This document shows positions 7,865 to 64,000 of a DNA stretch of 64,000 nucleotides, in pieces; position 1 is the first letter of the stretch, and the number at the start of each line of letters is the position of its first letter. The notes beneath the pieces are model-generated. The model was not told the DNA's origin. It searched no databases and saw only the letters and a program-made list of their open reading frames with translations. This stretch comes from an uncultured bacterium (GTDB taxonomy: Bacteria; Hydrothermota; E44-bin80): contig CAYMQB010000010.1 of the NCBI GenBank assembly GCA_964392665.1, positions 895-64,894 on the forward strand, read 5' to 3'. A program made the translations under genes and the position numbers.

Positions 7865-7865
7865 G

Positions 7866-11974: not shown

Positions 11975-12140
11975 ATAGTCGAAGGAATTTATAACTACTT
12001 TCCTTTTTTGTCAAGAAGTAAATGCTCGAAACGCAGGATTAAATTACCGGAAACACATTCTTTTTGCAAGTATTTTCCCTTGACAATGCACAGAATTTGT
12101 GGTAAAGGAGCAGGAGAAAAGAAGTTGTCTGGAGGTAAGA

Positions 12141-13379: not shown

Positions 13380-13436
13380 AATCGCGTTTTTGGGAAGACA
13401 AAATTAGCTGCTTTTACACACATAAATCATAATAGT

Positions 13437-14450: not shown

Positions 14451-14522
14451 AAAAATGCTTTTGTCAAGTTCTATCTTGAAATGTAAGCATGAGCTCTATT
14501 ATACGGTTGTCGCAAAAAGGTC

Positions 14523-14551
14523 TTGACTGCATTGAGTTTATGTGTTACTAT
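14523..14551 (+). promoter_or_regulatory. Sigma-70-like promoter for the wzz-wzy-wzx-GT operon
   Basis: TTGACT at 14523-14528, 17-nt spacer, TACTAT at 14546-14551; followed by a ~170-nt leader. Confidence 0.4.
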
Positions 14552-14654
14552 TTATGCGAGTAAAAATAAGGAGAGATGCGTATAGGCTCGTAAATGTTTG
14601 TGTCATAAATGAATTGAGATTTTCGGTTAAATGTGACACATATGTTGAATCGAG

Positions 14655-14696
14655 CCCGGTTGTTTCCGGGGACCCCAAAACGGGTCTCAGTTTTTT
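14655..14696 (+). promoter_or_regulatory. Leader hairpins and intrinsic-terminator-like structure (candidate attenuator) 25 nt upstream of wzz
   Basis: Hairpin 1 is CCCGG-TTGTTT-CCGGG (14655-14670). Hairpin 2 is GACCC-CAAAAC-GGGTC (14671-14686), followed by TCAG and a T6 run (14691-14696). Hairpin 2 plus the T-run resembles a rho-independent terminator lying between the promoter and the wzz start. Confidence 0.3.
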
Positions 14697-14721
14697 ATCA
14701 AAAAGTTGAGTAGGAGAGAAA

Positions 14722-18432: not shown

Positions 18433-18434
18433 TT

Positions 18435-23252: not shown

Positions 23253-23303
23253 TATTTTGTTTCAAAGGGATTGCAAGGTTAGTGGAATATTGTTAACAAG
23301 ATC

Positions 23304-24590: not shown

Positions 24591-24650
24591 ACCTGTGCAA
24601 TTTTAACACAAAAATATAATGAAATCAGACTATTAAAGTGGAAAGATGCT

Positions 24651-26820: not shown

Positions 26821-26839
26821 GCTTTGAATTGTTTTCAAA

Positions 26840-31311: not shown

Positions 31312-31322
31312 AAAAGCACTCC

Positions 31323-32423
31323 TTACTTTTCAAAAAATTCTCGAATTGTTATAATGACATACTCTATTTCTTCGTCTGCTAAATCAGGATGAATCGGTAA
31401 TGAGAGGACCTCTTTTGCAGCTTTTTCAGACTCTGGAAAATCACCTTCTTTGTAACCAAGATAATCAAATGCCTTTTGAAGGTGCAAAGGTATAGGATAA
31501 TGAATTGCAGTTCCTATATTCTTTTCAGTCAAATACTGTTTCAGTTCATCCCTTCTGGATGTTCTTATTGTATACTGGTGATAAACAGTTTCATTCCCAG
31601 GTGTTATATACGGAACTTCAACGCTATCTTTTAGTCCCTCATCATATTTAAGAGCAGTCTCTCGTCTTTTCTTGTTCCATTCATCTAAGTATTTTAACTT
31701 AATCCGCAAGAAGGTAGCTTGAATAGCATCAAGACGGTCATTATAGCCAAGAACATCGTGATAATACTTTTTTGACGCTCCATGCACTCGTAGAGCGCGT
31801 AATTTATTATCCAAAAATTCGTTGTTTGTTACAATCATTCCAGCATCTCCCAAAGCATTCAGATTTTTGGTGGGGAAAAAACTTATGCAAGCAGTATCAC
31901 CGAATTTTCCAATATTCTCTCCGTTATACTTTGAGCCTATTGCCTGTGCCATATCTTCTACAACTTTTAGATTGTTTTCTTTGGCAATTTTCATAATCTT
32001 GTCCATATCAGCTGCTTGCCCGTATAAATGTACAGGTAAAATTGCTTTTGTTTTCTCGGAAATAAGCGGGGTAATTTTGTCGGGACTGATGTTGAAAGTT
32101 TTAGGTTCAATATCACAGAAGATTGGCTTTGCCCCAAGCAATGCAATAACTTCGGCAGTGGCCATAAAAGTAAACGGGCTTGTTATAACTTCATCGCCAG
32201 AGTGGACGCCCAATGCTGCCAGAGACAATAGTAAAGCATCTGTCCCATTTGATACGCCAATTGCGTATTCAGTGCCAATATACGAGGCAACTTCGTGCTC
32301 AAAGTTCTTGACCTCATCTCCAAGAATAAATTGCCCGCTGTCTAATACCTTTTCAAATGCATTCATCAGTTCTTTTTTTATGGGCTTATGTTGACGCTGT
32401 AAATCTATAAACGGTACTTTCAT
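31323..32423 (-). CDS. DegT/DnrJ/EryC1/StrS-family PLP-dependent sugar aminotransferase (WbpE/GnnB-like)
   Basis: 366 aa; 'FIDLQRQHKPIKKELMNAFEKVLDSGQFILGDEV', 'AIGVSNGTDALLL'; the active-site lysine region lies in the 'SFFPTKNLNALGDAGMI' segment. Confidence 0.8.
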   Translation of the reverse strand: MKVPFIDLQRQHKPIKKELMNAFEKVLDSGQFILGDEVKNFEHEVASYIGTEYAIGVSNGTDALLLSLAALGVHSGDEVITSPFTFMATAEVIALLGAKPIFCDIEPKTFNISPDKITPLISEKTKAILPVHLYGQAADMDKIMKIAKENNLKVVEDMAQAIGSKYNGENIGKFGDTACISFFPTKNLNALGDAGMIVTNNEFLDNKLRALRVHGASKKYYHDVLGYNDRLDAIQATFLRIKLKYLDEWNKKRRETALKYDEGLKDSVEVPYITPGNETVYHQYTIRTSRRDELKQYLTEKNIGTAIHYPIPLHLQKAFDYLGYKEGDFPESEKAAKEVLSLPIHPDLADEEIEYVIITIREFFEK

Positions 32424-38237: not shown

Positions 38238-39653
38238 TTATCTCAGTTTTATTACTTTTTGCGTAATTGTCCTTTCCTGCAGATTTGCTTTGATATAGTA
38301 TATACCTGGAGGAATCTTAGAACTATTCCATGCAAAGGTATATCTTCCGCGATTTAGTTCTTTTGAAACAAGGGTAGCTATTTTTCTTCCTGAGATGCCG
38401 TAGATGGAAATTTCCGCATTCACTTTTCCCAGAACACTTAAATTGACCGAGACAGAGTTTATAATCAGAGTTGGGAAAATACGAAGAGAAAAGTTCTTAT
38501 TCTGCAGATTTGTTTCAGAAACCCCACCTCCCAGAACTATGTCATTGGAGTCTCGTGGTTCTATCTTGAAGTTTCCAAAAGAATAATTTAGTGGTCCTGT
38601 TACTGTGTATACTTCGCTTATAACAGGGATATAACTGACACCCATATCATCGATTCTAACCGGCCCCGAACTATCATCCAACTCCCATTCGCCGTTACCC
38701 AGAGAGTCGTCTGTACATGTGGCAGTGACTCTTACAAGGGAACTTTCATAGTCTTCGACCGGAACAGAACCTGTTTGTAAAACTGTTGGTCCAGGAATAG
38801 AAGCTCCACTCGATAGCACTTCGGTAAGCGGCCCAGTAAGTTCGGTCATTCCGAAGTACTCGGTCACCATGCCTGTTATGCGAACACTATCTCCCCTTGC
38901 AGGTGCAGTTGAACTACCATATACATAGATACCGTGCCATGGTCCTCCAGGTTGCTCTTCTATGAAGAAATCGTTTCCATATACTCCACTCACTATACCG
39001 TAGGTTACAACAGCAGAATTTTCCCAGGGTGAAGAGGTTGCCTGTCCCTGTATTTCATATATGCTCAAAGTTTCAGGAGGTGTTCCCGAGCCGAGGTCTT
39101 CGAAATAAGCATCATCGACGTAAATCAGGGCACTGTCAGTAAAACCGCTAACATCGTATAGTCTGATCTCGACATGAGCAGTTTCTGCCAATGCCGGTGC
39201 ACCTTGTGGACCCGACAACAATTGCTGCCATTCTGTTGAATCGGAACTGTAATCACCATAGTAGCCGTTGATAAATCCACCGGTGCCGTCATACCATCGT
39301 ATGTTAACCCTCGCTCTTCCATACTGGTCGTTGTCAAAACACCAGAAAGAGAAATTGTAGTCATTAGCTGGATTGATTGGCGCAACATACTGAGTGAATC
39401 TCTGGGTTGAGGTGGACCTGAGGATTAGTTTTGCACTGAAAGTTCCAGAGTGAACAATACCGGATTCTTTTACTGCATCAAAGCCAGTTGTTTCGGTATA
39501 CCAGTATTGACATGTAGAGTCATCGACCCAATTTTCGAATCCTGGATTCAGGAGCAGATTCTGTCCCCAGGCGGTTGGTAAGGGTAACAAGAAAAAAGCA
39601 ATAATGGTCATTAAAACAGAATTTTTCATAAAACCTCCTTTTTTACAAACCAA
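38238..39653 (-). CDS. Secreted protein with an N-terminal CBM4/9-like domain, an ExeM/NucH-type OB-like domain and a T9SS C-terminal sorting domain
   Basis: Signal peptide 'MKNSVLMTIIAFFLLPLPTAWG'; 'LLNPGFENW' beta-sandwich start; 'IYEIQGQATSSPWENSAVVTYGIVSGVYGN'; C-terminal ~80 aa 'LRIFP...NLSVLGKVNAEISIYGISGRKIATL...GIYYIKANLQ...KVIKLR' matches the T9SS/FlgD-Ig-like CTD. Confidence 0.5.
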   Translation of the reverse strand: MVCKKGGFMKNSVLMTIIAFFLLPLPTAWGQNLLLNPGFENWVDDSTCQYWYTETTGFDAVKESGIVHSGTFSAKLILRSTSTQRFTQYVAPINPANDYNFSFWCFDNDQYGRARVNIRWYDGTGGFINGYYGDYSSDSTEWQQLLSGPQGAPALAETAHVEIRLYDVSGFTDSALIYVDDAYFEDLGSGTPPETLSIYEIQGQATSSPWENSAVVTYGIVSGVYGNDFFIEEQPGGPWHGIYVYGSSTAPARGDSVRITGMVTEYFGMTELTGPLTEVLSSGASIPGPTVLQTGSVPVEDYESSLVRVTATCTDDSLGNGEWELDDSSGPVRIDDMGVSYIPVISEVYTVTGPLNYSFGNFKIEPRDSNDIVLGGGVSETNLQNKNFSLRIFPTLIINSVSVNLSVLGKVNAEISIYGISGRKIATLVSKELNRGRYTFAWNSSKIPPGIYYIKANLQERTITQKVIKLR

Positions 39654-40301: not shown

Positions 40302-41507
40302 TTACCGAACGGTTTTAGTTGATTTTACAATCTGCTTCTTGATCTTGTCAAGGAACATACAATTCACATCTTTGGCAGAGGAGAAGAAGGTTTTGAGAAT
40401 TTCCGCGTTGTAAAGATTTAATCTCATAATTATTTTTTGGTCAAGCGCAAGAATTTGATTCGTACCAGTTCCAGCGACATACAAAATGTGTTCACCATCC
40501 GGACTAAATACCAGTTTTCTTCCCTGGTTAAAACAATCGTTTATTCTTGAAAAGTTTGGGTCATACGATTGGATTTCTTTTCCATCGAGAACAATAATAG
40601 CTTTCTTGACATTTGCCTTCATAATTGTGAATGCATAGTGGAGATCATCATTTGAGAAAGCTATTGAGTTGGTGAAAACCTTAAGAGCGACAGAAACAAC
40701 TTCACCATCGTACTTGATTTTTATTTGGTTTGCAGATGGGTCATCCTGTAGAGCAATGAAGTGTTTTCCTTTATGGGAGAGAACGAAATAAGTAATTGCA
40801 TTCTTTGACTCGATTGTCGTTGTCTCGTTTCCATCGATAATGACTTTCATCTTGTTTCCATTTCGTGTCACTGCACCGTAGTGTTCGCCATCCCCTGAAA
40901 TCGAGGTGAATAATGGCATATTGCTGATGCGCTGTCTTTTTCCGTCAAAAACCAGAAAATCACCTGTTCCGTCTACAACCCAGTAAAGTAAATGATTACC
41001 GTCGATGCTGACCTTAGGTTTTGCTGAATAAGGTGATTTGTCGATTGGCTTAGCGTCTTTCATAATCTTGTTCATTTTTTCGGTTACTCTCGTCGTATAT
41101 ATAAGGCTGCCGTCATTTAGGAATTGAAGTGATTTTGGAGTGTCGTCTTCCCTTATTATAGTCTTATAGGGATATGTCGCAATTGTATTACCATCCTTAA
41201 CGACAATCTCTTTCTTCCCCAAAAGAGCGATGTATGCAAAATGATTTCCATCGGAACTCAATGAAAGAACATCTATTGCAGGATATGTTTTATCAGATTT
41301 TTCATCGTAGACTACTGCTTCTCCTTCGGTTTTCTCTTCAACATATGCAAGATGAGGGGCATAATTCGAAAACACTATTGAACATTCCTTAACATTCGTG
41401 CCCGCTGGAATTTTGTATAAAACCTCTTTTGATTCCCGGGAGCAGGAGGAAATGGAAAGGGATATTCCTAAAAGCAGAAGACAAAATAGGCAATTCTTCA
41501 TAGTCAA
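40302..41507 (-). CDS. Lipoprotein with repeated beta-propeller-like modules
   Basis: Lipobox 'LLLGISLSISSC'; repeated 'DG-H-AY/ DGNHLLY/ DGEHYGA/ DGEHILY' segments suggest a beta-propeller. Confidence 0.45.
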   Translation of the reverse strand: MTMKNCLFCLLLLGISLSISSCSRESKEVLYKIPAGTNVKECSIVFSNYAPHLAYVEEKTEGEAVVYDEKSDKTYPAIDVLSLSSDGNHFAYIALLGKKEIVVKDGNTIATYPYKTIIREDDTPKSLQFLNDGSLIYTTRVTEKMNKIMKDAKPIDKSPYSAKPKVSIDGNHLLYWVVDGTGDFLVFDGKRQRISNMPLFTSISGDGEHYGAVTRNGNKMKVIIDGNETTTIESKNAITYFVLSHKGKHFIALQDDPSANQIKIKYDGEVVSVALKVFTNSIAFSNDDLHYAFTIMKANVKKAIIVLDGKEIQSYDPNFSRINDCFNQGRKLVFSPDGEHILYVAGTGTNQILALDQKIIMRLNLYNAEILKTFFSSAKDVNCMFLDKIKKQIVKSTKTVR

Positions 41508-49264: not shown

Positions 49265-51787
49265 GTGATGGAAAAGAGGAAAAAAATTAAGCTTTTCGTA
49301 GGGTTGGGCGTATTCGTTATTGTTCTGCTTGTCTATCTCTTAACACTCGCACCGACTTCTTCGTTCTGGGATTGTGGTGAATTTATTGCCTGTTCATATA
49401 TACTCGGTGTACCTCATCCGCCCGGTACACCTTTGCAAATTCTGATAGGCAGAATTTTTACTTTAATTCCCATTGGCAAAGAAATTGCATTCAGAATGAA
49501 TTTATATTCGGCATTAAGTGGAGCATTGGCTGCGTTCTTTATTTATTTGGTTTTCGTCAAAGTTGTCGGACGATTCAGAAAATTGGAGACAATATGGGAA
49601 AGAGTGTTAGTTCATACTTTTGGAGCAGCGACTGCGCTGCTTGCATCTTTTACATTTTCGAACTGGGATAATTCCGTTGAGGCAGAAGTTTATTCAACAT
49701 CTTCCTTAATTATGTTCTTCTGTATTTGGTTTGCATTAGTTTGGCAGGAAAACATCGGAAAGAGGGGAAACAAAAATCTCCTCGTTGTCCTCATTTATAT
49801 AATTTTTCTCAGTATGGGGATTCATCTTTTGCCTTTACTAATCTTACCCGGATTGTTTGTGTTTATTCTAATTGTAAACCCCAAGGACTTGCTTGATTCG
49901 AAATTCTTTCTTATAATTCTTGGACTCATTGGCATTTCGGTTACGACCTACTTTTATCTTATGTTAAGAGCGCGGTTAAATCCGGGTATAAATGAAGTAG
50001 ACCCGACTACATTTAGAAAACTCTGGGACGTTTTTACAAGAAAACAGTATGGACCAATGAAGTTTTTTCCTCGAAAAACGGCAATGGAAACTGGCTATAA
50101 CGTGTTTTTTGCAGTATGGCAGCAGATACTGGTGTATGTGAAGTACTTTTCCTGGCAGTTCGTAGCATTTCCAAGAGAGGTAATGAGCATTTCCACTGCA
50201 GGTCGTTTTGGCTCTTTTTTTGTAACCTGGTTGTATGCGATCTTAGGTTTCTGGGGTTTATGGTCACATTTTAGGAGGGACAAGAAAACATTTGCATTGA
50301 TTGCACTAATATTCTTATTTACGAGTGTTGGACTGGTTTTATACCTCAATCTCAGGTTTTCGCCATCCGACCTGGATCCCAGGCACATTCCGAAAGAAGT
50401 CAGAGAAAGGGACTATTTTTACAGTACTTCGTATCTTTTCTTCGTTTTCTTCATTGGGATTGGATTATGGGAGGTCGCTACGAACTTGATAGAAGCGAGC
50501 AGAAAGAAATGGAAATCGATTGTTGCAATTGCCTGTGTCGTTCTTATCTTCGCATTTCCGGTGGTTCCTTTATTCAGCAATTTCAATTCTCATGTGAATA
50601 GACATAATAACTGGATACCAAATGATTATGGAATGAATCTTCTTATGACATGTGATGAGGGAAGCATAATTTTTACCAATGGTGACAATGATACCTTTCC
50701 TTTATGGTTTGTCCAGGAAGTCAAGAGTTACAGAAATTTCGACCCGGAGAAGAGGAAAGGCGTTGTCGTTGCCAACTTGAGCCTATTAAACACCGATTGG
50801 TATATAAGGGAACTCAAGGAGTGGGGAGTTCCTATAGGTTTTACGGATAGAGAAATACAGATGTTAAGACCTGTGAAACTTCCAAATGGTGAGATACTGT
50901 ACATAAAGGATCTTGCGATAAGAAGTATTATTGCGACAAATCAAGGCAAAAAACTATCTCCCAAGGATCTGTTTTCCCCGAGGGAAGAATTCGTGAAGAA
51001 ATATGTTAATGAAAACTACAAGGGGAGATTCAATATTTATTTTGCCGTTACAGTATCAAGGGAAAATATGAAGGGATATGAAAGGCATCTCAAGCTTGAA
51101 GCTCTTGCATACAAGATTGTGGCAGAAGAAGGAAGAGGTATGATAGATGCGGAAAAGACGGAAGATTTACTTATGAATAAATTCAGTTATAGGAGTATTT
51201 TCGATGATAGAGTTTACAAGGACGGTAATACGATAAAACTGTTCAGTAACTATGCTGCGGGATTTTTCGCACTCGGTACATACTATAAGAACGCGGATAA
51301 CTATGATAAAGCGATTGAAGTGCTTGAATTTGGAAAGAAATTTGCCATGAGGGACGTTATGCCTTTCGCATATACTCTTGCCGAAATATACAAAAATAGG
51401 AAGCAGTATGAGAAGGCTAAGCAAAACCTGATGGAGGTTACGAGGAAAATTGATTCCGGGCTCATTTTTTATATGCTTGGACAGATCGACGAAGCCCAGG
51501 GAAATGACGAGGAAGCACTGCTCAACTATATCAAGGCAAAGGAAAGTGGAAACGACAAAGTTGCAGGTTATGCAGGGCTTGTATCATACTATTTCAGGAA
51601 AGGAGATAGTATGAATGCTTCCAGATACTTAAGAGAGGCAATGGAGCAGAGAGACATATATAAATATCTTTGGACTTTCTATATGCAAAACGGTGATACT
51701 GCGGTAGCGAAATTTCTGATTAAAGATTATCTAAAGGTTCGTCCAGACGATGAAAGTGCAAAGAAACTCCTTAACCAAATGGGATAA
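49265..51787 (+). CDS. DUF2723/TMEM260-like polytopic membrane protein (putative glycosyltransferase, protein O-mannosyltransferase-like fold) with C-terminal TPR repeats
   Basis: 840 aa. N-terminus 'VYLLTLAPTSSFWDCGEFIACSYILGVPHPPGTPL' is the DUF2723 signature; about 11 TM helices in the first 420 aa; C-terminal 400 aa are helical/TPR-like ('YYKNADNYDKAIEVLEFGKK'). Confidence 0.55.
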   Translation: MMEKRKKIKLFVGLGVFVIVLLVYLLTLAPTSSFWDCGEFIACSYILGVPHPPGTPLQILIGRIFTLIPIGKEIAFRMNLYSALSGALAAFFIYLVFVKVVGRFRKLETIWERVLVHTFGAATALLASFTFSNWDNSVEAEVYSTSSLIMFFCIWFALVWQENIGKRGNKNLLVVLIYIIFLSMGIHLLPLLILPGLFVFILIVNPKDLLDSKFFLIILGLIGISVTTYFYLMLRARLNPGINEVDPTTFRKLWDVFTRKQYGPMKFFPRKTAMETGYNVFFAVWQQILVYVKYFSWQFVAFPREVMSISTAGRFGSFFVTWLYAILGFWGLWSHFRRDKKTFALIALIFLFTSVGLVLYLNLRFSPSDLDPRHIPKEVRERDYFYSTSYLFFVFFIGIGLWEVATNLIEASRKKWKSIVAIACVVLIFAFPVVPLFSNFNSHVNRHNNWIPNDYGMNLLMTCDEGSIIFTNGDNDTFPLWFVQEVKSYRNFDPEKRKGVVVANLSLLNTDWYIRELKEWGVPIGFTDREIQMLRPVKLPNGEILYIKDLAIRSIIATNQGKKLSPKDLFSPREEFVKKYVNENYKGRFNIYFAVTVSRENMKGYERHLKLEALAYKIVAEEGRGMIDAEKTEDLLMNKFSYRSIFDDRVYKDGNTIKLFSNYAAGFFALGTYYKNADNYDKAIEVLEFGKKFAMRDVMPFAYTLAEIYKNRKQYEKAKQNLMEVTRKIDSGLIFYMLGQIDEAQGNDEEALLNYIKAKESGNDKVAGYAGLVSYYFRKGDSMNASRYLREAMEQRDIYKYLWTFYMQNGDTAVAKFLIKDYLKVRPDDESAKKLLNQMG

Positions 51788-54116: not shown

Positions 54117-54188
54117 GGGATTTCCAGCACTCGGAATGACAAACTAAACTGTGTCAACTAAGCAAACTATGTAAAGAGTTGATGGAAA

Positions 54189-54228
54189 TAAAAAAAGTGA
54201 GCTGCCAGCTTGACAGCTCACTTTTTTT
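54189..54228. terminator. Bidirectional rho-independent terminator between convergent htrA-like and porV-like genes
   Basis: A-tract (54189-54196), 9-bp perfect stem AGTGAGCTG (54196-54204) / CAGCTCACT (54214-54222), 9-nt loop, T7 (54222-54228). Confidence 0.7.
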
Positions 54229-54242
54229 ATTCGTGCTATTTC

Positions 54243-55292
54243 TTAGAAGCCAAATCCAATGGAAACTCTGTGTATCAGCGATAGTCTTCCAAGGTCTTCA
54301 CCTGCGTAATCGATATTTACATGCTGGTTGCCAAACGGGAGCAGTGCACCAAAACCGAATGCAAGCCCTTCATGTCCGTTCAACTTGTCTTCGAATAAGT
54401 CAGGTTCATATTTGTAGCCACCTCTGACAGCGAACATATTGTTCCACACGTATTCCATTCCAAGACGGACAATTTCCTTGCTGTCATTTGGATGTGATGC
54501 ATCAAGCGCTATTGTCAGGATACCGGTTTCGCTCTTCAATGCATCATACGCCAAACCTATGCTGAAGTTCATCGGCAGTGGATATGGGGATGCTGAAATT
54601 TCCATTGGTTGATTTTTGCCGCTCCAATCACCTTCTTTAAGCTCGGTACCCAACTGTCCTCCTTTGAAAACCATCTCCGGTCCGAAGTTTGTCATCACGA
54701 ATGCGATTTTCAGGTTTTTAACAAAGGAAGGACTGTACAGAGTACCAAAATCGAACGCTAAGCCATTAGCTGCCATATCCCAGATGTTTTCCTGAATCCA
54801 CTTTAGATTCAAGCCGAAAGCAAACTTGTCGGTAAGCTTTTTCGAGTAATTGAATGTCGCAGCAATGCTACTGGCTCCAAAAGTTTCACCTGTTCCTTCG
54901 GGTTCATACACGGTAGTTACATCCATTTCACCCAATGAAAGAACGGTCAATCCAAAGCCAATATTACCGAGAAGTCCCATTGGTTTGACATAAGAAACGA
55001 AGTTGTTCCTTATGTCGAGAACCCACTCGACATCACTGACAAAAAATGCGTTCGTGTTTACCTGTGCTGCACAGGCAGGATTCCAATAAAGTGCTGATGG
55101 ACCATCCGCGACGGCACTGAATGCACCAGCCATTGAAGCTCCCCTGGCTCCCACACCTATCTTTAAGAATTGTGCACCTGCTGTTCCAAGTTTGGAAAAC
55201 GCTGCATAAGATAAGGATGTTATGAGGAGAACCAGAGTTACTACCAATGCAATTCTCTTTATCATTTTATACCTCCATTCTGTAAGTTTCAT
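54243..55292 (-). CDS. porV: PorV/PorQ-family outer-membrane beta-barrel protein (T9SS shuttle protein, FadL-like)
   Basis: Signal peptide; 'GTAGAQFLKIGVGARGASMAGAFSAVADGPSALYWNPA' resembles the conserved PorV N-terminal strand; C-terminal 'SIGFGF' OMP terminus; start overlaps the upstream gene stop by 1 nt. Confidence 0.5.
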   Translation of the reverse strand: MKLTEWRYKMIKRIALVVTLVLLITSLSYAAFSKLGTAGAQFLKIGVGARGASMAGAFSAVADGPSALYWNPACAAQVNTNAFFVSDVEWVLDIRNNFVSYVKPMGLLGNIGFGLTVLSLGEMDVTTVYEPEGTGETFGASSIAATFNYSKKLTDKFAFGLNLKWIQENIWDMAANGLAFDFGTLYSPSFVKNLKIAFVMTNFGPEMVFKGGQLGTELKEGDWSGKNQPMEISASPYPLPMNFSIGLAYDALKSETGILTIALDASHPNDSKEIVRLGMEYVWNNMFAVRGGYKYEPDLFEDKLNGHEGLAFGFGALLPFGNQHVNIDYAGEDLGRLSLIHRVSIGFGF

Positions 55293-58231
55293 TATCTTAT
55301 CAGAGCAAATTTTCCTGTTTTGGTTTCTTCGCTGTTTGGCATTGAGATATGATAGATGAATATGCCGCTTGCTGGTCTCTGATTATTATCTGTAAGCATA
55401 TCCCATTTTTCGCTTCCGCCCTGAATTGCACTGGAAGCAGTTGCTTCGACTTTGTGCTCTATCGTCTTGATAAGATTTCCCGCAAGGGTGTAAACTCTGA
55501 TTGTGCATTCGCTTGGTAGATTTGTGAATCTCAAAACTGCATATTCACTGCTTACTTCCCAGGGATTTCTTACAACATAAGGGTTAGGGACAACCTTTAT
55601 GTTGTCAAGATTTGCATCTCCAATTGAGAATGCCGTGGTACCAATGGTGAAAATATTACCTTCGGAAGGAACAACCTCGCCTGAGTTATATAATGTCCAG
55701 ATGTCATTGTCGCCGGGATGCTTGGACCAGTTCATTGGATATGCTTCATTCCCAATTCTGTTGAAATAGTATTTTACACCACACACATAGAAGTATGTTC
55801 TTGACGAAAGATTGTTAACACTTATGTATTGAGAATTCACCTCAGGATTGGCTAAACTTCTTGGACCGAAACTCCAATTATCTCCCCAGGTAGCTCCGAA
55901 TGGTACCATCACAGTGTTCGTAACATCCCATACAGTTGCCGTTACACTGTCGCTATTGATCTGTTTCCATCTGATTTCATAGGTTATTCCGCCTCTGAAA
56001 GCCCATAGATTCTCTATACCTGAAATTGTAAGGTTATCAGTATAAGAAGAGTCAGCTATGATCGAATCGGCGGTCATCACCATTGTTAGTGCTGCAGTAG
56101 AGTCTTCGGTAACGGTTGTAACCGTGTCACTAACAACTACAACAGTGTTGGTGATTGTCCATGTTGAATCTGCGAAGTGAATACTTATATCACCCGAATA
56201 TTCGACACCATCGAATAGAGGAGAAATGAAACTACCTGCGACGCTTAGAGCATATACGGAATCGTATTTTGTGGTCGTTGTAACCGTATCTCCACTCGTT
56301 TCGACCGTAACGGACTCTGTTGCTGCTGTGAAAGCAGGACTTAGTTCGACAAAGGCATCGATATCTGAGAGTAACAAAGAATCCGTTTGATAGTATATGT
56401 TATAGTTGTAAACGGGCAGGTAATCGGTTCCTTCTTTGACGGTCTGGAATTTTACATTATATGTATCACCGGTCACGAGCATTCCGCCTTTTGGTGTGGC
56501 GGTTGACGTGACTGCATTTGTGACACCTGCGGTCTGCGTTACGTTTGAATTGGCATTACCTATTTCGTTTCCGAAATCGCTTCTTGGAACGACGACGACT
56601 TCGTTTTTACCACTTTCGAGTGATGTGAAGGTCGTGTCTCCAAGTTCACCTGATGTGTTGTAATCGTATGCGGAAACACCGTAGTAATAGTCAAAACCGT
56701 TGTAAATTCCCACGGAATCAACGTAGGTATATTGCATACCTTCGTCTATTCCGTTTTCAGTTCCATCGGGAAGCAGTTTGATACCATCTTTCTTGTCGAA
56801 CTCCGCAATTTCGGTCCAATCACCTATTTTCCCTAACTTTCTCCACACTCTGTAACCCTGAACATCATACTCCCTGTAGATTGTGTCTCCTGCTGCCTGC
56901 ATTGCAGGATAGTATTTATCAGGTGTCTTTTCGGCGGTGTTATCCCAGCAAACCGTTACCTGTTCGTTTCCAGGAATGATTGCCGTGATCGAAGGTGGAG
57001 GAGAAGGAGGTCCGGGTGATGCCCAGTCAAGGTCGTAGAGTTGTTTTGCAGCGTCGCCTTCCTGTTTCAGATAAAGAAGTCCCCCTGTGTTTCCGTTTGA
57101 GAACATCATTGCCATAATAATTGTATCTGCTTCACCTGGTGCAAGTGTAAATGGACCGGCAGACATTGCCATTCTCTTATCGCTCGGGTCAACATCAACG
57201 CTGTCTCCAAATGGATTGTAAGATGGTGGTGTGACAGTAAAATCATAACCAGCCATAACAAGAAATCTTTCCCTGTCTATGGTTGCATCTATATCTCTTG
57301 TGAATTTCTTGAAAGCGGTTAAAGGAATTCTTTCACCGGGATAAATTAAAGTATCGGGATTTGCAGGATCCTGACCGACCTTGATCGTATCATCCGCTAT
57401 AGGTCCTTGAAGAAATCTGAAACCTATGTAGTATGGTGGTAAAGCATCCCAACCTGCTTCCTGGGTTGTCGTAAAAGTATAACCAAGACTTCTTTTTCTG
57501 TCCAGTCCGACAAGGTCATCATCTGCATTTCCAATATCAAGGTCACTTCCAAGTCCAACGTACATTTGCTTTACAGTATCCGTGCCTGTATTTTCAATAA
57601 AGTATTCGATAAACAGCATATTTTCAAGCAGCTTCTGAGTCCATGCAAATGTATGTCTTGTGACAGTAATGGGAAGTGTTACATCGTCCGGCATACACTG
57701 TTTGCTTGCTTCATGACCATTGAATAAACACCAGGTGTCTTCGTCACCCAGAAGAATTTTTTCGGTACCTGTAGAATCAAGATATGGCCATTCGTTCCAA
57801 TCAGTAGGGTTTGTACTTACATAGAGTCTGTCTTCAGGATGACTTTGGGGGTCATTGAGATGGTCTTGATTATGTGCCTCGGGTCCAGGCATAAACTCAT
57901 CTCCTGCGCCAACAGTGTTATACCCGTTAATACAAACACTATCCCCTGCACTTGTCAATCCTGCGATCCAGATACCGGCACCGTATATGTATGCATTGGC
58001 ACTACCCTTTGGCCACCAGCATCCCGAAGTCCCTGCGAGATTCTGTCCATACTGACCATAGTTTGTAATGAATGTTTCCACCTGGTTAATCTCGATTTTC
58101 TCGTTTTCATACGCTCTTGTCCCTGAAGATGTCTTTTTGTAAGAAAAAGCACCCGTAGTCAGTAGAAGAAGAAGGGAGCAAGAGAGCATCATCACCAAGA
58201 GAAACTTTCCTGCTTTTGGGCTTATCATCAT
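55292..58231 (-). CDS. Large secreted protein with T9SS C-terminal sorting domain; position immediately upstream of porV makes it a PorU-like (T9SS sortase) candidate
   Basis: 979 aa; signal peptide 'FLLVMMLSCSLLLLLTTGAFS'; CTD 'LRFTNLPSECTIRVYTLAGNLIKTI...GIFIYHISMPN...GKFALIR'. No catalytic motifs could be confirmed by eye. Confidence 0.45.
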   Translation of the reverse strand: MMISPKAGKFLLVMMLSCSLLLLLTTGAFSYKKTSSGTRAYENEKIEINQVETFITNYGQYGQNLAGTSGCWWPKGSANAYIYGAGIWIAGLTSAGDSVCINGYNTVGAGDEFMPGPEAHNQDHLNDPQSHPEDRLYVSTNPTDWNEWPYLDSTGTEKILLGDEDTWCLFNGHEASKQCMPDDVTLPITVTRHTFAWTQKLLENMLFIEYFIENTGTDTVKQMYVGLGSDLDIGNADDDLVGLDRKRSLGYTFTTTQEAGWDALPPYYIGFRFLQGPIADDTIKVGQDPANPDTLIYPGERIPLTAFKKFTRDIDATIDRERFLVMAGYDFTVTPPSYNPFGDSVDVDPSDKRMAMSAGPFTLAPGEADTIIMAMMFSNGNTGGLLYLKQEGDAAKQLYDLDWASPGPPSPPPSITAIIPGNEQVTVCWDNTAEKTPDKYYPAMQAAGDTIYREYDVQGYRVWRKLGKIGDWTEIAEFDKKDGIKLLPDGTENGIDEGMQYTYVDSVGIYNGFDYYYGVSAYDYNTSGELGDTTFTSLESGKNEVVVVPRSDFGNEIGNANSNVTQTAGVTNAVTSTATPKGGMLVTGDTYNVKFQTVKEGTDYLPVYNYNIYYQTDSLLLSDIDAFVELSPAFTAATESVTVETSGDTVTTTTKYDSVYALSVAGSFISPLFDGVEYSGDISIHFADSTWTITNTVVVVSDTVTTVTEDSTAALTMVMTADSIIADSSYTDNLTISGIENLWAFRGGITYEIRWKQINSDSVTATVWDVTNTVMVPFGATWGDNWSFGPRSLANPEVNSQYISVNNLSSRTYFYVCGVKYYFNRIGNEAYPMNWSKHPGDNDIWTLYNSGEVVPSEGNIFTIGTTAFSIGDANLDNIKVVPNPYVVRNPWEVSSEYAVLRFTNLPSECTIRVYTLAGNLIKTIEHKVEATASSAIQGGSEKWDMLTDNNQRPASGIFIYHISMPNSEETKTGKFALIR

Positions 58232-58260
58232 AGCCTCCGTTTTTGGTTTTGTGTTTTAGG

Positions 58261-61200
58261 TTAAAAGCTTACGCTGATTCCGATATGGATTTTTCTCGGG
58301 TCTCCATAGAGATACGGGTCGTTTAGCAGATCCTGATAAGCGACTTTGTAAGAATCGTACCATTCCTGTTGTGAGATTTCTCCATTGCCATCGAAATCCC
58401 TTCTATCATCGTACTTACTGTGGTTTGATGGTATCGTATTGGTAACATCTGATGGCCAGGTCGAGGAGATGTATCCGTCGAAAGTTGATAGTTTATCATT
58501 ATCGTCTGTTTTCCCGGTTTCGGGATAAACATTGACAACATTTTCCGTATTAAGCAGATTTGTTATCTCGGCAAACAGAGAATAATAGAAGTTCAAAACT
58601 TTCAGTTCCTTTGAGACCTTCAGGTCTGTTATCCAGTTCCAGGGCATACGTTCTCCATTGACTTCTCCGATTATCAACTGGGATGTGTTCCTCTTTGTAT
58701 AGGGAAGTCCACTGGAAAGACTTGACAACAAATTAATGTTTATGTTCTCCAATGGATAGATGGTGCCCATCGTAGGACCACTCTCAGCTGGAATCCTGAA
58801 ATTCGCTTGTGCCGATACAATATGCCTCTGGTCAAATTCAAGAGCATAATCAGTCTTTGGAATCGGAACAGCTTCTCCCGTGACAGGGTCAACAGGTACA
58901 TTTGCAATGTAGTCATAGTATGCCTGTGTTCCGTAAGAGCTGGTTCCTTTTGCCTGAGATAATGTATAAACAAGTTTACCTGAAAGGAATCTTGTCGCTC
59001 TTTTTGTAAGGGTGAACTCTGCACCTTTGACATTGCCGTAATCTTCTGTAACGAACTGGGTGTATGTGTTAGGCAATGCGGGAACGAATCTAACTCCGAT
59101 CAAGTCATAAAGATCTTTATAGTAAACCGTTACGAACAGCGCAGCATCAGTTCCCAGTTGTTGTGCAAGACCAATTTCATATGAAGTTGTTTGTTGCGCA
59201 CTTATGTCAGGGTTTCCTAGTCTTGTCCATCCACCTCTTGCTTTAGCAAGGTCAGTGTTGATGTTATCATAAAGGCGGATTAACCTGGGAATCTGGAAGA
59301 ACTGTCCATAAGATACATGCAATACGGTATTTTCAGTTACCGGGAATGAAACACCGAGCCTTGGGCTGAACTTGTATTTAGGATTGGCATCTTCCTTACC
59401 AACACTAATTCTGGTCGGGTCGATGTATTTCTGAGCGTTTGCATCCAGGTAGTCGCCTCTGATACCAATATTAAGGATGAATCCTGGATATTCCATTTTG
59501 TCCTGGATATACAGGGCTCCCTGAAGTGGTTCATATGTATAGTCGTCAAAATACAAACATTCAGTAAGGTCGTGACTGCTTTGTGCACTAGGGCTTGTAG
59601 CAATATATCCACCGTAATGACGCTCTGCTGTGTGCTTGATACCCTCCAACCCAACCTTCAGCTGGTGATGGTCTGTAATCTGACTTGTTATATCGAGTTT
59701 ACCATCTATATAGGAGGATAGTCTTTCGGTCCAGTTTCCACTTCCACTGTATCCAAAGGCAAAATTATTACCTGACTGACCATTTACACCCCAAGGGTAA
59801 TAGTAGTTTCCATCTGCATCTTTTGCATAGTAATCGAGACTGTCGATGTCTGCTCCGCGCTGCCCTGAACTCGTCACTTCGTCGATATCATAATACCACC
59901 AGTCTAAGAAATCGTAATCTTCCCATAGTTTCCTATCTGCTTCAACGACAATGTCCCTTGTTCCCTCCCATGTATGGGTGGTGAAGTAGGCGAGGTTTAA
60001 GGTATAAAAGGTTGATTGCGAAAGCACGTGGTTGAGTGTGAAGTGCCCTTGCTGAGCTTTTTTCAGGACTGCTGATCTCTGAAATGGTGGTTTGTACTTA
60101 TCGTCCTGTTCGCTCCACTGTGATTCGCCAGGTAGTCCAAATGTGCCACAGTATTCGCCGTACTGGGTTCGCGTTGTGAATCCACTTCCAGTGACACGAA
60201 TTTTAGGACTTATCTGGTATGATACTTTGGCATTCAGGGAATAGTAATCTCTGTCTGTATTGGACATCGGGAAGAATGTGTTTCCCTGGTCTCTTGTAAT
60301 CTGAGAAGCGAATGCATTTTGATGGTCTCTTGCCGTAACTTCTGATGAGATGAAGTAAGACAAACCTTTTATTCCTGGAATGGATCCACCAAAGTTCAAT
60401 TCACCCCTGTGAAAACCTTCGTAAAGACTTCCGCCACTTGGTCCAACCTCGTTTCCGTTGATAACATATTTTTCGCTATCATTCTTAAAAGGAAAATCTG
60501 TTGTATATCTTAAGAAACCTTCTGTTTTCTTTCCTTCTTTTGTTACGAGATTTACTATTCCACTCATTGCCTGTCCATATTCGGCATTGAAGCCACCTGT
60601 CTGGACAACCACTTCTTTTATGGCGTTCATATTGACCTGAGCGCCAGCCTGTCCAGTAATAGCATCATTGATGGACATACCATCAACCATATAGACAATT
60701 TCGTCTGCTCTTCCACCTCGTATGTGTAAACCTTCAGTTGCACCACTGGCACCACCGGCGGAATTTAGAACACCAGCTTGTTCGCTGATAACATCGTTGT
60801 AATTGTGTGTAATTCTATTTTCCATCTCCTCCGTGGTAACGAAATGTGTGGTTGATGTTACATCTTTTTTAACCATAGTTTTCTTAGCGACAACGATTAC
60901 TCCTTCAACCTTGATAACTGTTTGTGAAAGTTCGAAATCGATCGTTGTGGTAAAATCCTGGACCACTCTCACGTCGGTTTTTGTTACAGGTTTATAACCA
61001 ATCATTGTTGCCGTAAGAGAATATGTTCCTACTGGAACATTAATAACGAAGTATTTACCGCTCGTATTTGCTGCTCCTCCCATCGAGGTGCCTATGATGA
61101 CGACATTTACACCGGGAAGGACTTCGCCTGTATTTGCATCGATTATCCGTCCCATAATCTTTCCTGTAACTCCAGCAAAGACGCTTGAGATGGAGAAGAG

Positions 61201-61290
61201 CAAAAGGAGAGTAATCAAGAACGGTATCTTTATGAATCTTTTTGCTTCGTTCTTCATGGAATACTCCTTTCGTTGAATTGCATTAAGCAT
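58261..61290 (-). CDS. TonB-dependent-receptor-like outer-membrane protein (CarboxypepD_reg + plug + beta-barrel; SusC/RagA-like)
   Basis: 1009 aa; 'GKIMGRIIDANTGEVLPGVNVVI...TSGKYFVINVPVGTYSLTATMIGY' (carboxypeptidase-regulatory-like), plug 'YMVDGMSINDAITG', C-terminal 'IGISVSF' aromatic terminus. Confidence 0.55.
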   Translation of the reverse strand: MLNAIQRKEYSMKNEAKRFIKIPFLITLLLLFSISSVFAGVTGKIMGRIIDANTGEVLPGVNVVIIGTSMGGAANTSGKYFVINVPVGTYSLTATMIGYKPVTKTDVRVVQDFTTTIDFELSQTVIKVEGVIVVAKKTMVKKDVTSTTHFVTTEEMENRITHNYNDVISEQAGVLNSAGGASGATEGLHIRGGRADEIVYMVDGMSINDAITGQAGAQVNMNAIKEVVVQTGGFNAEYGQAMSGIVNLVTKEGKKTEGFLRYTTDFPFKNDSEKYVINGNEVGPSGGSLYEGFHRGELNFGGSIPGIKGLSYFISSEVTARDHQNAFASQITRDQGNTFFPMSNTDRDYYSLNAKVSYQISPKIRVTGSGFTTRTQYGEYCGTFGLPGESQWSEQDDKYKPPFQRSAVLKKAQQGHFTLNHVLSQSTFYTLNLAYFTTHTWEGTRDIVVEADRKLWEDYDFLDWWYYDIDEVTSSGQRGADIDSLDYYAKDADGNYYYPWGVNGQSGNNFAFGYSGSGNWTERLSSYIDGKLDITSQITDHHQLKVGLEGIKHTAERHYGGYIATSPSAQSSHDLTECLYFDDYTYEPLQGALYIQDKMEYPGFILNIGIRGDYLDANAQKYIDPTRISVGKEDANPKYKFSPRLGVSFPVTENTVLHVSYGQFFQIPRLIRLYDNINTDLAKARGGWTRLGNPDISAQQTTSYEIGLAQQLGTDAALFVTVYYKDLYDLIGVRFVPALPNTYTQFVTEDYGNVKGAEFTLTKRATRFLSGKLVYTLSQAKGTSSYGTQAYYDYIANVPVDPVTGEAVPIPKTDYALEFDQRHIVSAQANFRIPAESGPTMGTIYPLENININLLSSLSSGLPYTKRNTSQLIIGEVNGERMPWNWITDLKVSKELKVLNFYYSLFAEITNLLNTENVVNVYPETGKTDDNDKLSTFDGYISSTWPSDVTNTIPSNHSKYDDRRDFDGNGEISQQEWYDSYKVAYQDLLNDPYLYGDPRKIHIGISVSF

Positions 61291-64000
61291 TATCTCAGAA
61301 CCAGAAGTTTCTTTGTTGCTCTAAAATTGCCTGCACTGAGTTTGTAGAAGTAAACACCCTGCGCTACTCTCTTATTATTGTTGTCGCTGCTGTTCCAGAG
61401 CACACTTTTGTATCCTGGTTCTTCTACACCACTAACAAGTGTTTTTACAAGTCGTCCTGCTGAGTTATAGATTCTCAGGGACACGTTCGATTTTTTGGGA
61501 ATTGAATAAAGAATATTCGTTCTGTTCTTGAATGGGTTAGGTCTATTCTGAGAAAGGGCAAAAACCTTTGGCATATTTGGTGTTTCCTTATCTTCGGATG
61601 TAATCTTGATTGCCGCACCAAACCATGTCAAAACATTACCCATAACTGTTATTTGGTCCGATTTCGGTAGCGATACATACATAAATGGTAAGAAAACGAC
61701 CTTGTTGCTTGTATCTTCCCATCTGACTCCTCGAACCGTGGTTGCTCCAGCGTCTGTGAAAATAGCAATTGCACTGGGTTCAATACCAATTTCATCATTC
61801 CAGTTTGTTAGAGGAAATGTTTCTTCTGCCACAATACCGTCTGAAATCGGATCGCCTGTGATTCCATAGACTGAATCATAACAGACATCGTTGTAAATGT
61901 AATTTACCTTAAGTACATCGTAAGGAAAATCACCGGAAGCATAGGCGACGTTTGCCCAACCGTCCCATAATCCGAGGATTTCATCCGAATTAAAGAAGAT
62001 ATTTCCACCCTTTGACATATAATCGTAGAGCACATTTCCAGCACTTGTTTTTGTAAGAATTGTTCCATAACCATAATCGCCATTCCAGATTATTGCGTTG
62101 TAGTTAGGAAATACGGTTGAATCCGGTGTTCCGTATACTATGGGGTCATAGACATCGTATCCACCTGTAATACCAAGTGAATCGAGGACATCCTGGTAAT
62201 CGAGTAACGCATCTCCTGATTCGTTTACATAGAGGACGTTTGCTGTTGGAACCAGAAACCAGAATTCATAGGTAGGCGATGATGAAACTTGGTTGTCCGA
62301 GTCCAATGCCTCAACATGATAAACAATGTCGGTTTGGCTAGGATAAACGGGAATGTTTGCCGAATAGTCAACGCCACTTTTTGTGGATGTCATCGGAATC
62401 GTATCAGGAACTCCATTTGCAACAACAATAAGATCAACCGAAAGTAGTGAATCTGCAAAGTTTGTAACTGTTACGGTCACAGGATAAGGTCCTGATGTTG
62501 TGGTTGTGCAGTACTGCTTGAGTCCCAATATGGCTGCGGACGGTGTATTATCAAACCAGTCGAGAATTCTACCTATTAGTTCCTGCTGTTGCTGTATCTC
62601 AGGAGTGTATGGAACTGCATAATCTTCTATGTAAGCAAATGGGAAATACAGCCAAACTACCTTATATAAACCTGGCTGTTCGTATCTGAAAGCACTGCAG
62701 TATCCCCATTCATCGTATAGAATCCCGCGCCATTGTGTTGTATCTGCTGGTTCATCGAATTTTCCAGCGTAATTGTATCCGGGACCGACAAAGTAATAGG
62801 GAAAGCTTGTTATGGGCCAGTCTTCATTGAAGACTGCAGTAATCTGGTCATTCGTTCTCCCATAATAAACAGATATGGAGTCAGATGCATAGTCATCCGT
62901 TCCTCCGAGGATGCCGAAGTAATCATAAAGAAATTCACCGGACTCCGTTGTGTAGTCTCCCCAATCGTATCCGAATTCTCCTGCAGGTATATCCATACCT
63001 GAAACAAGCAGATTACCACCACCATCGAGAAAATCCTCTATCATTGACTGAGCATCGTAAAATGATGCCCCTGAATATTCCCAGGAATTCCAGATAATTA
63101 CATTGTATCCTGCGTTGAGAACGGAATTATCCGGGGCTCCGTCTGATGGAATATCCCACCAATCTGCAGTTGGAATAACATCCGTAATAACGTCATATGA
63201 GTAACCTCCACCGTAGTAATCGTCATTAACGAAGAGGATATCCCCTGTCTTTTCTTTTACAGTATAGGATACGGGAATCATTGCAGGAAGGTTTTCCAAG
63301 CCCTGCATATCGAAGCAATTAATATAGTAATCCATTGTTTGCCCAGCATTTATTCCGGGTAGTATCGCCTTCCATACACCACTTGCGGGGTCACCGGAGA
63401 TAAGGGTCATAGAAAGGGTGTCATATGCTCCTCCATCGATACTATAAAATAGGTTTCCTGCTACAACTCCTGTGGAGTCCAGCGGAATACCTAAATCGGA
63501 AAAAGTTGCTGTTACTTCTCTTCCCGTAGTTAAATAAGTATTTGCTAATTTCTCGTATGCATCTATTGACGGGGGTGGGTTTTCATACATCCTTACCAGT
63601 GCCCTGACATAAACATGGTGCCAGGATGAATACCATCCGAACGGACCTGTTCCACCGGAAGTACGCTGCATTATCGTATGATAAGGTGGCGAAACACTTG
63701 CGTCTATGATTGGACTGGAAACTCCGTCATCCATTATGTATGCAGCATAGAAAACATTTTTTGCAACATCCGGCATCGATGTAATATCCAGAGTATCCCA
63801 GCCATCCGGTGCGGTTGCCGAAACCTCAGGGTGCAGATATGTTTCTATAGGACTGGGACCTGCATTTGCCCCGCCATGATATTCCTCGTAGTCGGTTTCA
63901 AAATTAATGGTGTCCGCCGGGTCCGAAACATAGTATGTGACTGCACCGCCAGTGGCAAAGTAGTAGTATACCTGTAGTAGTGTACATGCAGATGGTGATT
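61290..64000 (-). CDS. Large secreted protein with T9SS C-terminal sorting domain (5'-partial; ORF stays open in frame to the window edge)
   Basis: At least 900 aa. Internal duplicated alpha/beta modules ('YNVIIWNSWEYSG...' / 'YNAIIWNGDYGYG...'); CTD 'RIYNSAGRLVKTLVSG...GVYFYKLSAGNFRATKKLLVLR'. The frame upstream of Met 63776 has no stop through 64000, so the listed Met is not the true start. Confidence 0.5.
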   Translation of the reverse strand, partial: SPSACTLLQVYYYFATGGAVTYYVSDPADTINFETDYEEYHGGANAGPSPIETYLHPEVSATAPDGWDTLDITSMPDVAKNVFYAAYIMDDGVSSPIIDASVSPPYHTIMQRTSGGTGPFGWYSSWHHVYVRALVRMYENPPPSIDAYEKLANTYLTTGREVTATFSDLGIPLDSTGVVAGNLFYSIDGGAYDTLSMTLISGDPASGVWKAILPGINAGQTMDYYINCFDMQGLENLPAMIPVSYTVKEKTGDILFVNDDYYGGGYSYDVITDVIPTADWWDIPSDGAPDNSVLNAGYNVIIWNSWEYSGASFYDAQSMIEDFLDGGGNLLVSGMDIPAGEFGYDWGDYTTESGEFLYDYFGILGGTDDYASDSISVYYGRTNDQITAVFNEDWPITSFPYYFVGPGYNYAGKFDEPADTTQWRGILYDEWGYCSAFRYEQPGLYKVVWLYFPFAYIEDYAVPYTPEIQQQQELIGRILDWFDNTPSAAILGLKQYCTTTTSGPYPVTVTVTNFADSLLSVDLIVVANGVPDTIPMTSTKSGVDYSANIPVYPSQTDIVYHVEALDSDNQVSSSPTYEFWFLVPTANVLYVNESGDALLDYQDVLDSLGITGGYDVYDPIVYGTPDSTVFPNYNAIIWNGDYGYGTILTKTSAGNVLYDYMSKGGNIFFNSDEILGLWDGWANVAYASGDFPYDVLKVNYIYNDVCYDSVYGITGDPISDGIVAEETFPLTNWNDEIGIEPSAIAIFTDAGATTVRGVRWEDTSNKVVFLPFMYVSLPKSDQITVMGNVLTWFGAAIKITSEDKETPNMPKVFALSQNRPNPFKNRTNILYSIPKKSNVSLRIYNSAGRLVKTLVSGVEEPGYKSVLWNSSDNNNKRVAQGVYFYKLSAGNFRATKKLLVLR

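Follow-up and report, generated by a model that had tools for sequence, protein, structure and literature searches.

A widespread gene triad of a TonB-dependent receptor, a surface-protein candidate and a PorV/PorQ-family barrel: a possible barrel-anchored uptake module in uncultured bacteria

Introduction

What does a TonB-dependent receptor do in an operon whose other products point to a type IX secretion system (T9SS)? This question is raised by a stretch of 64,000 nucleotides (nt) from an uncultured bacterium assigned to the Hydrothermota (contig CAYMQB010000010.1), here called the window, to whose positions the coordinates refer unless a locus is named. At its end, four consecutive minus-strand genes encode a protein with two modules of the class I glutamine amidotransferase (GATase1)/ThuA type and a T9SS C-terminal domain (CTD) (gene 1), a TonB-dependent receptor (gene 2), a 979-aa surface-protein candidate (gene 3) and an outer-membrane barrel of the PorV/PorQ family (gene 4). 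TonB-dependent polymer uptake is understood mainly via the SusCD/RagAB paradigm and, to our knowledge, this paradigm is confined to the classical Bacteroidota. Here it is reported that the four outer-membrane genes are a co-transcribed module, that this module is widely conserved and that it most likely serves nutrient capture. As best explanation we propose, tentatively and at a little short of an even chance, a Sus/Rag-like uptake module in which a T9SS-delivered surface component would be held by its own PorQ-like barrel and would feed the TonB-dependent transporter. The module is best classed as a widespread, uncharacterised combination of two known kinds of system, i.e., a TonB-dependent uptake locus and PorQ/PorZ-type anchoring.

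Organization of the operon

First in the operon is gene 1, whose frame stays open from position 61290 as far as the edge of the window, over at least 902 aa, followed by the genes encoding the receptor (58261-61290; 1009 aa), the 979-aa protein (55292-58231) and the barrel (54243-55292; 349 aa). A model-generated interpretation made from the letters of the window, the sequence-only reading, had described these four minus-strand genes with 1-nt overlaps at 61290 and 55292, and this arrangement was found as claimed: GATAATG is read at both junctions, so that a single base ends the stop codon and opens the following ATG. Co-translation is indicated by these overlaps. Between the receptor gene and the 979-aa gene the spacing is 29 nt and GGAGG precedes the ATG. 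All four products carry Sec signal peptides, and as many full-length sequences are among the homologues found for each of them, the four open reading frames (ORFs) are real genes and did not arise by chance.

The operon probably starts just beyond the window edge, since in a near-identical 6.3-kb JGI contig (L089), which was reached via gene 1, this gene is preceded by a 214-nt gap holding the sequence TTGACA-17 nt-TAGACT. At the other end, the strong bidirectional terminator of the sequence-only reading was recovered as an intrinsic terminator at 54187-54231, common to the operon and a convergent HtrA gene. It consists of an A7-stem-loop-T7 hairpin with A and T runs on its flanks and folds with -23.1 kcal/mol (z = -7.6). 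Scans of the window for tRNAs and Rfam families gave no match.

Conservation of the triad

The 979-aa protein was used to follow the operon into other genomes. In an exhaustive profile search its family comprises 2621 clusters at 50% identity (E <= 1e-30), and the family source names among the matches listed are 'hypothetical', 'FlgD Ig-like', 'fibronectin type III' or 'T9SS type A sorting domain' only. A scan of GTDB species genomes returned 412 relatives, from which 79 distinct loci were retrieved that form the basis of the gene-order counts given below. The majority of the 79 loci are from WOR-3, others from metagenome-assembled genomes (MAGs) labelled Cloacimonadota, Stahlbacteria, Edwardsbacteria and Latescibacterota. 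The receptor gene lies immediately upstream of the gene for the big protein in 60 of the 65 loci with enough flanking sequence, the gene for a PorV-like barrel lies immediately downstream of it in 59 of 64, and both adjoin it in 53 of the 55 informative loci, which come mostly from WOR-3 and in part from Cloacimonadota-labelled and Stahlbacteria MAGs. These three genes, here termed the triad, were also observed around distant relatives of 1300-1550 aa in three Ignavibacteria and Kapabacteria/Chlorobi-labelled loci that were fetched separately; the barrel of this type is 31% identical to the window barrel (E = 3e-45). The triad keeps its order and strand where identity has fallen to 27-30% and in several phylum-level lineages, and the order recurs in several lineages of the FCB group. 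Moreover, at least 10 genomes are represented twice among the best 80 loci, and four loci (L009, L013, L067, L086) contain a tandem second cassette. Such multi-copy and tandem cassettes fit a substrate-specific locus better than a single-copy machinery.

A Latescibacteria relative of the 979-aa family with 1429 aa and a dockerin (L088, 8001-12290) stands alone without receptor or barrel, which shows that the use of the N-terminal module is not limited to the triad. The triad is likewise absent from L005 and L037.

The conserved gene order could in principle reflect inherited synteny without functional coupling, with an ordinary TonB receptor placed between T9SS cargo genes and a generic FadL-like channel, and the Pfam matches of the barrel to Toluene_X and UPF0164, both borderline, would suit such a channel. 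However, we regard this as very improbable, as the three genes hold their order and strand at the low identities and across the lineages given above, the stop/start overlaps indicate co-translation, and the barrel scores clearly above the PorV/PorQ family cutoff.

The 979-aa protein and its cognate barrel

Gene 3 (55292-58231, minus strand) encodes a member of a family without Pfam model, for which no Pfam family was matched at E <= 0.01 and no significant match was obtained with the family profile against PDB sequences (best E = 0.046). The AlphaFold2 model, based on 37 homologues, is nearly all beta with a mean predicted local distance difference test (pLDDT) score of 83.6. Following the signal peptide, the N-terminal domain (residues ~43-400; 57032-58105, minus strand) is predicted to adopt a beta-supersandwich of the glucoamylase/GH94 type, which is a carbohydrate-binding-type fold as in galactose mutarotase and the N-terminal domain of glucoamylase. 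In the model this is followed by a fibronectin type III (FN3)-like domain, a poorly conserved and variable region of very long strands and the sandwich of the CTD (residues ~878-979; 55295-55600, minus strand). Trp, Tyr and Phe occupy many of the invariant columns of the family, which also comprise a DxDxG...D cluster of acidic residues; this cluster and invariant aromatic residues lie in the N-terminal supersandwich. As the model contains no (alpha/alpha)6 catalytic domain, and as no invariant His, Ser, Cys or Glu is present in the N-terminal supersandwich columns in the alignment of the 37 sequences, the 979-aa protein looks like a binding or scaffold protein and not like an enzyme.

The CTD is the part of gene 3 that ties it to the T9SS. 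The single NCBIfam match of the 979-aa protein is to the last ~90 positions of PorZ (29.5 bits), and the invariant C-terminal Lys is present. Across the 37 family members the PorZ tail is matched by 25, the PorU tail by 22 and TIGR04183 by 18, and the CTD has the highest mean pairwise identity within the family (53%), as compared to the N-terminal domain (45%) and the middle region (30%). The sequence-only reading had taken gene 3 for a CTD protein; this holds for its CTD-like tail, but the T9SS type A CTD is recognised at the level of the family and not in the window copy itself, while gene 1 has a clear one. [quoted passage not shown] As the tails of PorZ and PorU are the best matches of the gene-3 CTD, and as the CTD is the most conserved region in this family and the least conserved one in the gene-1 family, stable anchoring of the 979-aa protein is suggested rather than a transient secretion signal.

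The proposed anchor is the FadL-like barrel encoded by gene 4 (54243-55292, minus strand). It matches the PorV/PorQ family model NF033709 with 198.4 bits (cutoff 90), residues 37-349 covering model positions 1-326 of 326, and its top PDB sequence match is Flavobacterium johnsoniae PorV (6h3i_F). In the sequence-only reading the operon was described as ending in PorV, of which the family assignment stands but the specific name does not. All equivalog scores are below their cutoffs, i.e., 84.7 for PorQ (NF033711; cutoff 220), 64.8 for PorV2 (cutoff 325) and 62 for PorV (NF033710; cutoff 250), and the barrel was thus rejected both as PorV proper and as PorQ proper. PorQ ranks above PorV in the window barrel, and this was also observed for the three further cassette barrels that were tested (L003, L004, L007). 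This ranking and the CTD evidence together support a cognate pair in the style of PorQ/PorZ. The linkage of the locus to the T9SS, which the earlier reading had proposed, is borne out by the type A CTD of gene 1, the CTD-like tail of the 979-aa protein and the barrel score above the family cutoff; one of the two outcomes it had named as speaking against itself, a barrel with only generic FadL/OmpP1 matches and large proteins without CTD matches, did not occur.

The 979-aa protein had further been considered as a candidate for PorU, due to its position upstream of a PorV-like barrel. This assignment (NF033707/Peptidase_C25) was rejected. No C25 or PorU match exists outside the last ~100 residues, the family matches the PorU model only at positions ~1000-1080, i.e., within the CTD, and the all-beta model lacks a caspase-like domain. 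Furthermore, genuine PorU-like genes composed of Propeptide_C25, Peptidase_C25 and CTD stand separately near the cassette in L003/L019, L004, L042 and L048, which settles that the PorU role is not filled by the 979-aa protein; for the C25 genes of L003 and L004, the two that were scanned, PorU is the best NCBIfam model. An identity as PorZ (NF052228) was rejected as well, as only model positions 669-757 are matched, the score is far below the cutoff of 260, the N-terminal domain is a supersandwich of glycoside hydrolase type and the TM-scores against the PorZ structure 5m11 are only 0.10-0.13.

These similarities raise the alternative that in this lineage the big protein and the barrel are the functional counterpart of the PorZ-PorQ half of the attachment complex, or of PorV itself. 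The receptor would then be a co-opted envelope component and the module a part of the secretion or envelope-biogenesis machinery instead of a nutrient system. The CTD closest to the PorZ and PorU tails and PorQ as top equivalog of the barrel fit this possibility, and so do the PorU-like C25 genes less than 10 kb from the cassette in the loci named above, which are adjoined by no other PorV-family barrel. Additional points in its favour are the GWxTD, lipid A acyltransferase and heptosyltransferase genes that follow the triad in L087/L091, and Wbp-like sugar genes in the window. We nevertheless consider it unlikely. Beyond the CTD the fold of the big protein is unlike PorZ, as reflected by the low TM-scores, the module is multi-copy, tandemly duplicated and accompanied by variable enzyme neighbours, linkage to PorU is observed in only ~5% of loci, and TonB-energised transport, as implied by the conserved TonB box and plug of the receptor, plays no part in the attachment complex as known.

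The TonB-dependent receptor

The transporter of the proposed uptake module is the receptor encoded by gene 2 (58261-61290, minus strand). In agreement with the sequence-only reading, which had described a 1009-aa outer-membrane protein with CarboxypepD_reg domain, plug and barrel, the protein consists of a signal peptide, CarboxypepD_reg, TonB box, plug and a large barrel, and its Pfam matches PF13715/PF13620, PF07715 (43.3 bits) and PF00593 (85.8 bits) are all above cutoff; an STN domain was not found in the Pfam scan. The TonB-box-like motif EGVIVVA (60886-60906, minus strand) is located between the CarboxypepD_reg domain and the plug, and in an alignment of 64 cassette receptors an xVxVxA pattern is kept at this position upstream of the plug. 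Plug, 22-strand-type barrel domain and TonB box being present, gene 2 is, judged by its domains, a genuine plug-barrel TonB-type transporter. The suggestion that it is a dedicated transporter associated with the cargo points in the right direction.

The direction of transport deserves consideration. Alternatively, the receptor might work outward in analogy to Oar, exporting the adjacent CTD proteins that would be received by the PorQ-like barrel, so that the triad would form a self-contained TonB-powered unit. The receptor architecture (CarboxypepD_reg, plug and large barrel) is of the Oar type, PF25183 (OMP_b-brl_4) is matched by the cassette receptors in L003 and L006 and, in two other loci, by a second receptor placed in tandem downstream of the barrel, and the receptor is always flanked by secreted-type proteins. 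Protein secretion dependent on a TonB-dependent transporter has a precedent, as Oar is required for PopC secretion in Myxococcus (PMC6434023). This is, however, an improbable explanation, since the CTDs are standard T9SS type A signals that are exported by SprA/Sov wherever studied, PorU-like sortases in sister genomes imply a conventional T9SS, and no precedent is known for a folded protein of ~100 kDa as passenger of a 22-strand barrel. Slightly less probable still is the specific case that the triad performs TonB-energised export of the large CTD protein via or with the receptor and hands it over to the PorQ-like barrel. If true, this would constitute an alternative to the SprA-based translocon of the T9SS in minimal form, it might connect TonB/ExbBD-powered transport and type IX secretion driven by GldLM in evolutionary terms, and some carriers might be without SprA or GldKLMN.

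Gene 1 and the variable neighbours

In the preferred uptake reading the genes flanking the triad would contribute secreted enzymes, and gene 1 (61290-64000, minus strand, cut by the window edge) occupies this variable, accessory position of the cassette. Its full length is known from the near-identical metagenome protein P0077, which has 1006 aa and a Sec signal peptide. The signal peptide is followed by an N-terminal beta domain, a first GATase1/ThuA-like alpha/beta module (62541-63245) that contains the motif NVIIWN, an Ig-like domain, a second such module (61611-62240) with NAIIWN and the T9SS type A CTD (61293-61541), all on the minus strand. The CTD matches TIGR04183 with 40.7 bits (cutoff 23) and Por_Secre_tail (PF18962) with 32.6 bits (cutoff 27), and it is this region that is least conserved across the gene-1 family. 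The sequence-only reading had recognised in gene 1 a CTD protein of at least 900 aa with duplicated 'IIWN' modules and had guessed a fold like class I glutamine amidotransferases or ThuA, and all three points were substantiated. The internal duplication amounts to 28% identity over 200 aa (E = 3e-7), and both modules match GATase1-like or ThuA-like domains by structure. Gene-1 relatives of ~680 aa in TA06/WOR-3 MAGs align to about half of the query (53-56% coverage), which is consistent with a single module in these proteins.

In other loci the accessory position differs. The upstream neighbour carries a T9SS CTD in 18 of 57 loci, and in most WOR-3 loci it is a Pfam-less protein of ~350 aa with an invariant lipobox cysteine. 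This family lies immediately upstream of the receptor in L036 (5045-6112) and in ~30 other WOR-3 loci, its invariant Cys being part of a GCG lipobox; searches with it against Pfam and PDB gave no match. Standing in the place of gene 1, it may be a lipoprotein partner of the transporter. Among the downstream neighbours in 42 loci, Peptidase_C11 was found 18 times, amidohydrolases four times, InhA-like proteins four times and C39-like proteins three times, and a Por_Secre_tail CTD is present on the downstream neighbour in 10 of these 42. In the two Kapabacteria/Chlorobi-labelled loci L087 (13421-15734) and L091 (13252-16587) the triad is followed on the same strand by genes for a GWxTD-domain protein and for an LpxL-like lipid A acyltransferase, the latter being succeeded in L091 by a family 9 glycosyltransferase of heptosyltransferase type. 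These neighbours hint at a tie to lipopolysaccharide (LPS) or envelope biogenesis.

Proposed mechanism and significance

By their coupling to a TonB receptor, their multiple copies and their variable, peptidase-rich neighbours, the cassettes resemble, by analogy, polysaccharide or peptide utilisation loci. On this basis the following mechanism is proposed. The 979-aa protein would be exported by the T9SS, and its CTD would stay uncleaved and dock on the cognate PorQ-like barrel, comparable to PorZ on PorQ and PorU on PorV. The non-catalytic beta-supersandwich/FN3 binding protein would thereby be held at the cell surface beside the transporter, where it would capture a macromolecular substrate, either a peptide or a glycan, and pass it to the TonB-energised barrel. 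Processing of the substrate outside the cell would fall to the variable CTD proteins on the flanks. In the window this partner would be the double GATase1/ThuA-like protein, and elsewhere C11, InhA-like or C39-like peptidases, amidohydrolases or BNR proteins may take this part.

Several observations weigh against this explanation. The NCBIfam matches of the receptor at E <= 0.01 do not include the SusC/RagA model TIGR04056, the big protein is not similar to SusD and no SusD domain is encoded in the neighbouring genes, so that the pair is not assigned to SusC/RagA with a SusD partner. The window copy of the 979-aa CTD gave no TIGR04183 match at E <= 0.01. The supersandwich fold also occurs in contexts unrelated to sugars, such as the P1 domain of YidC. 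A T9SS core gene (SprA/Sov, PorK/L/M/N, PorU) was not seen in the window among 30 ORFs scanned between positions 5 and 54116, a scan that left out ~13 ORFs, mainly at 25.8-29.6 kb and 41.6-48.7 kb. A complex of receptor, big protein and barrel is suggested by gene order and analogy. Finally, a PorU-like gene within 10 kb in four loci and the LPS genes (LpxL-like, heptosyltransferase) abutting the triad in two Kapabacteria-type loci would fit a role in secretion or envelope biogenesis. Among the first 86 of the 91 fetched loci no ORF has the size of SprA, the two longest frames being 1364 and 1377 aa. No published description of the triad was found in a literature search of incomplete coverage.

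The module suggests that the many CarboxypepD_reg-type receptors of other FCB-group lineages, among them WOR-3, Cloacimonadota-like bacteria, Stahlbacteria, Ignavibacteria and Kapabacteria, have another solution for recruiting a surface partner, in which the T9SS delivers this partner and its own PorQ-like barrel, instead of a lipid anchor, pins it to the membrane. If this is true, the role of PorV/PorQ-family barrels would extend from the secretion machinery to permanent anchors of nutrient-capture proteins. It would further assign a function to more than 2600 sequence clusters that are now annotated as hypothetical and provide a simple genomic marker of polymer-uptake loci in uncultivated degraders.

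Other features of the window

Convergent with the operon, the module of an extracytoplasmic function (ECF) sigma factor, an anti-sigma factor and HtrA that the sequence-only reading had described was found, the anti-sigma factor being of the zf-HC2 type. The adjacency is probably not a functional link, as it is kept only in the closest relatives of the locus (L001, L002, L008 and L011, 70-89% identity), and a functional tie was rejected for this reason; the missing STN signalling domain of the receptor is a further point against it.

A third CTD protein at 38238-39653 (minus strand, 471 aa), also noted before, carries Por_Secre_tail (28.4 bits) and a CBM_4_9-like region (23.8 bits, cutoff 25.9) and is a stand-alone candidate for T9SS cargo that is unlinked to the operon. 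At 29677-32423 on the minus strand, a gene for a fused GFO_IDH_MocA oxidoreductase and hexapeptide acetyltransferase (WbpB/WbpD-like) adjoins a gene for a DegT/WbpE-like aminotransferase. These enzyme types belong to the Wbp pathway, which is reported to be tied to the linking sugar of T9SS cargo in Porphyromonas gingivalis (PMC7468200), and the Wbp-like genes of the window could supply the anchor sugar for cleaved CTD cargo. Genes for TMEM260-like glycosyltransferases of the GT-C type are located on both sides of the operon, in the window at 49265-51787 (plus strand), where the protein also carries TPR repeats, and beyond the window edge in L089 at 1064-2866. This bracketing is repeated in the 89%-identical locus L001 (2042-3742), and PMT_2/TPR proteins are encoded near the cassette in L004. 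The region 12099-28003 contains a large surface-polysaccharide cluster with genes for a Wza-like exporter, a sulfotransferase, Wzz, a Wzy-like protein, a flippase and five glycosyltransferases. Three ORFs of 297, 271 and 401 aa (6971-8681 and 40302-41507) gave no significant Pfam match, the 401-aa ORF having a sub-threshold match to PROPPIN only.

Comparison with known systems

The module shares features with several characterised outer-membrane systems. With the PorQ-PorZ and PorV-PorU pairs of the P. gingivalis T9SS attachment complex it has in common that the gene for a CTD protein lies beside that for a 14-strand-type barrel of the PorV/PorQ family, and its CTD is nearest to the PorZ and PorU tails, which are themselves uncleaved and anchor the proteins to the barrels. 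In contrast to PorZ and PorU, the passenger has neither beta-propellers nor a C25 peptidase domain, respectively, the barrel is below all equivalog cutoffs and the pair is always coupled to a TonB receptor and multi-copy. SprB and SprF, representing type B CTD cargo and PorP/SprF-like carriers, similarly combine an exported surface protein with a dedicated outer-membrane carrier that is encoded beside it and to which it stays bound, but the module described here has a type A-like CTD and a barrel of the PorV/PorQ instead of the PorP/SprF family. In BamG-BamH of the Bacteroidota β-barrel assembly machinery (BAM) a barrel of FadL fold holds a large surface-exposed protein instead of acting as lipid channel (PMC12578637); however, BamH is a lipoprotein, the complex serves outer-membrane protein assembly, and no sequence match to Bam models was found. 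Oar from Myxococcus xanthus shares the receptor architecture and is likewise associated genetically with secreted proteins, but no link of Oar to a PorV-like barrel or to CTD proteins of the T9SS is known.

The comparison with SusC/SusD and RagA/RagB of Bacteroidota touches the proposed function most directly. The receptor differs from SusC and RagA in lacking a TIGR04056 match, SusD and RagB are alpha-helical lipoproteins whereas the partner described here is an all-beta protein of ~1000 aa with a T9SS CTD, and the third conserved gene, encoding the PorV/PorQ-family barrel, has no counterpart in Sus/Rag loci. In both kinds of locus, however, the gene for a large transporter with CarboxypepD_reg domain, plug and barrel lies beside that for a surface-exposed, non-catalytic partner, several copies exist per genome and variable secreted hydrolases are encoded on the flanks. 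In the loci described here these hydrolases are often peptidases, comparable to the Rag peptide importer and the T9SS-secreted gingipains.

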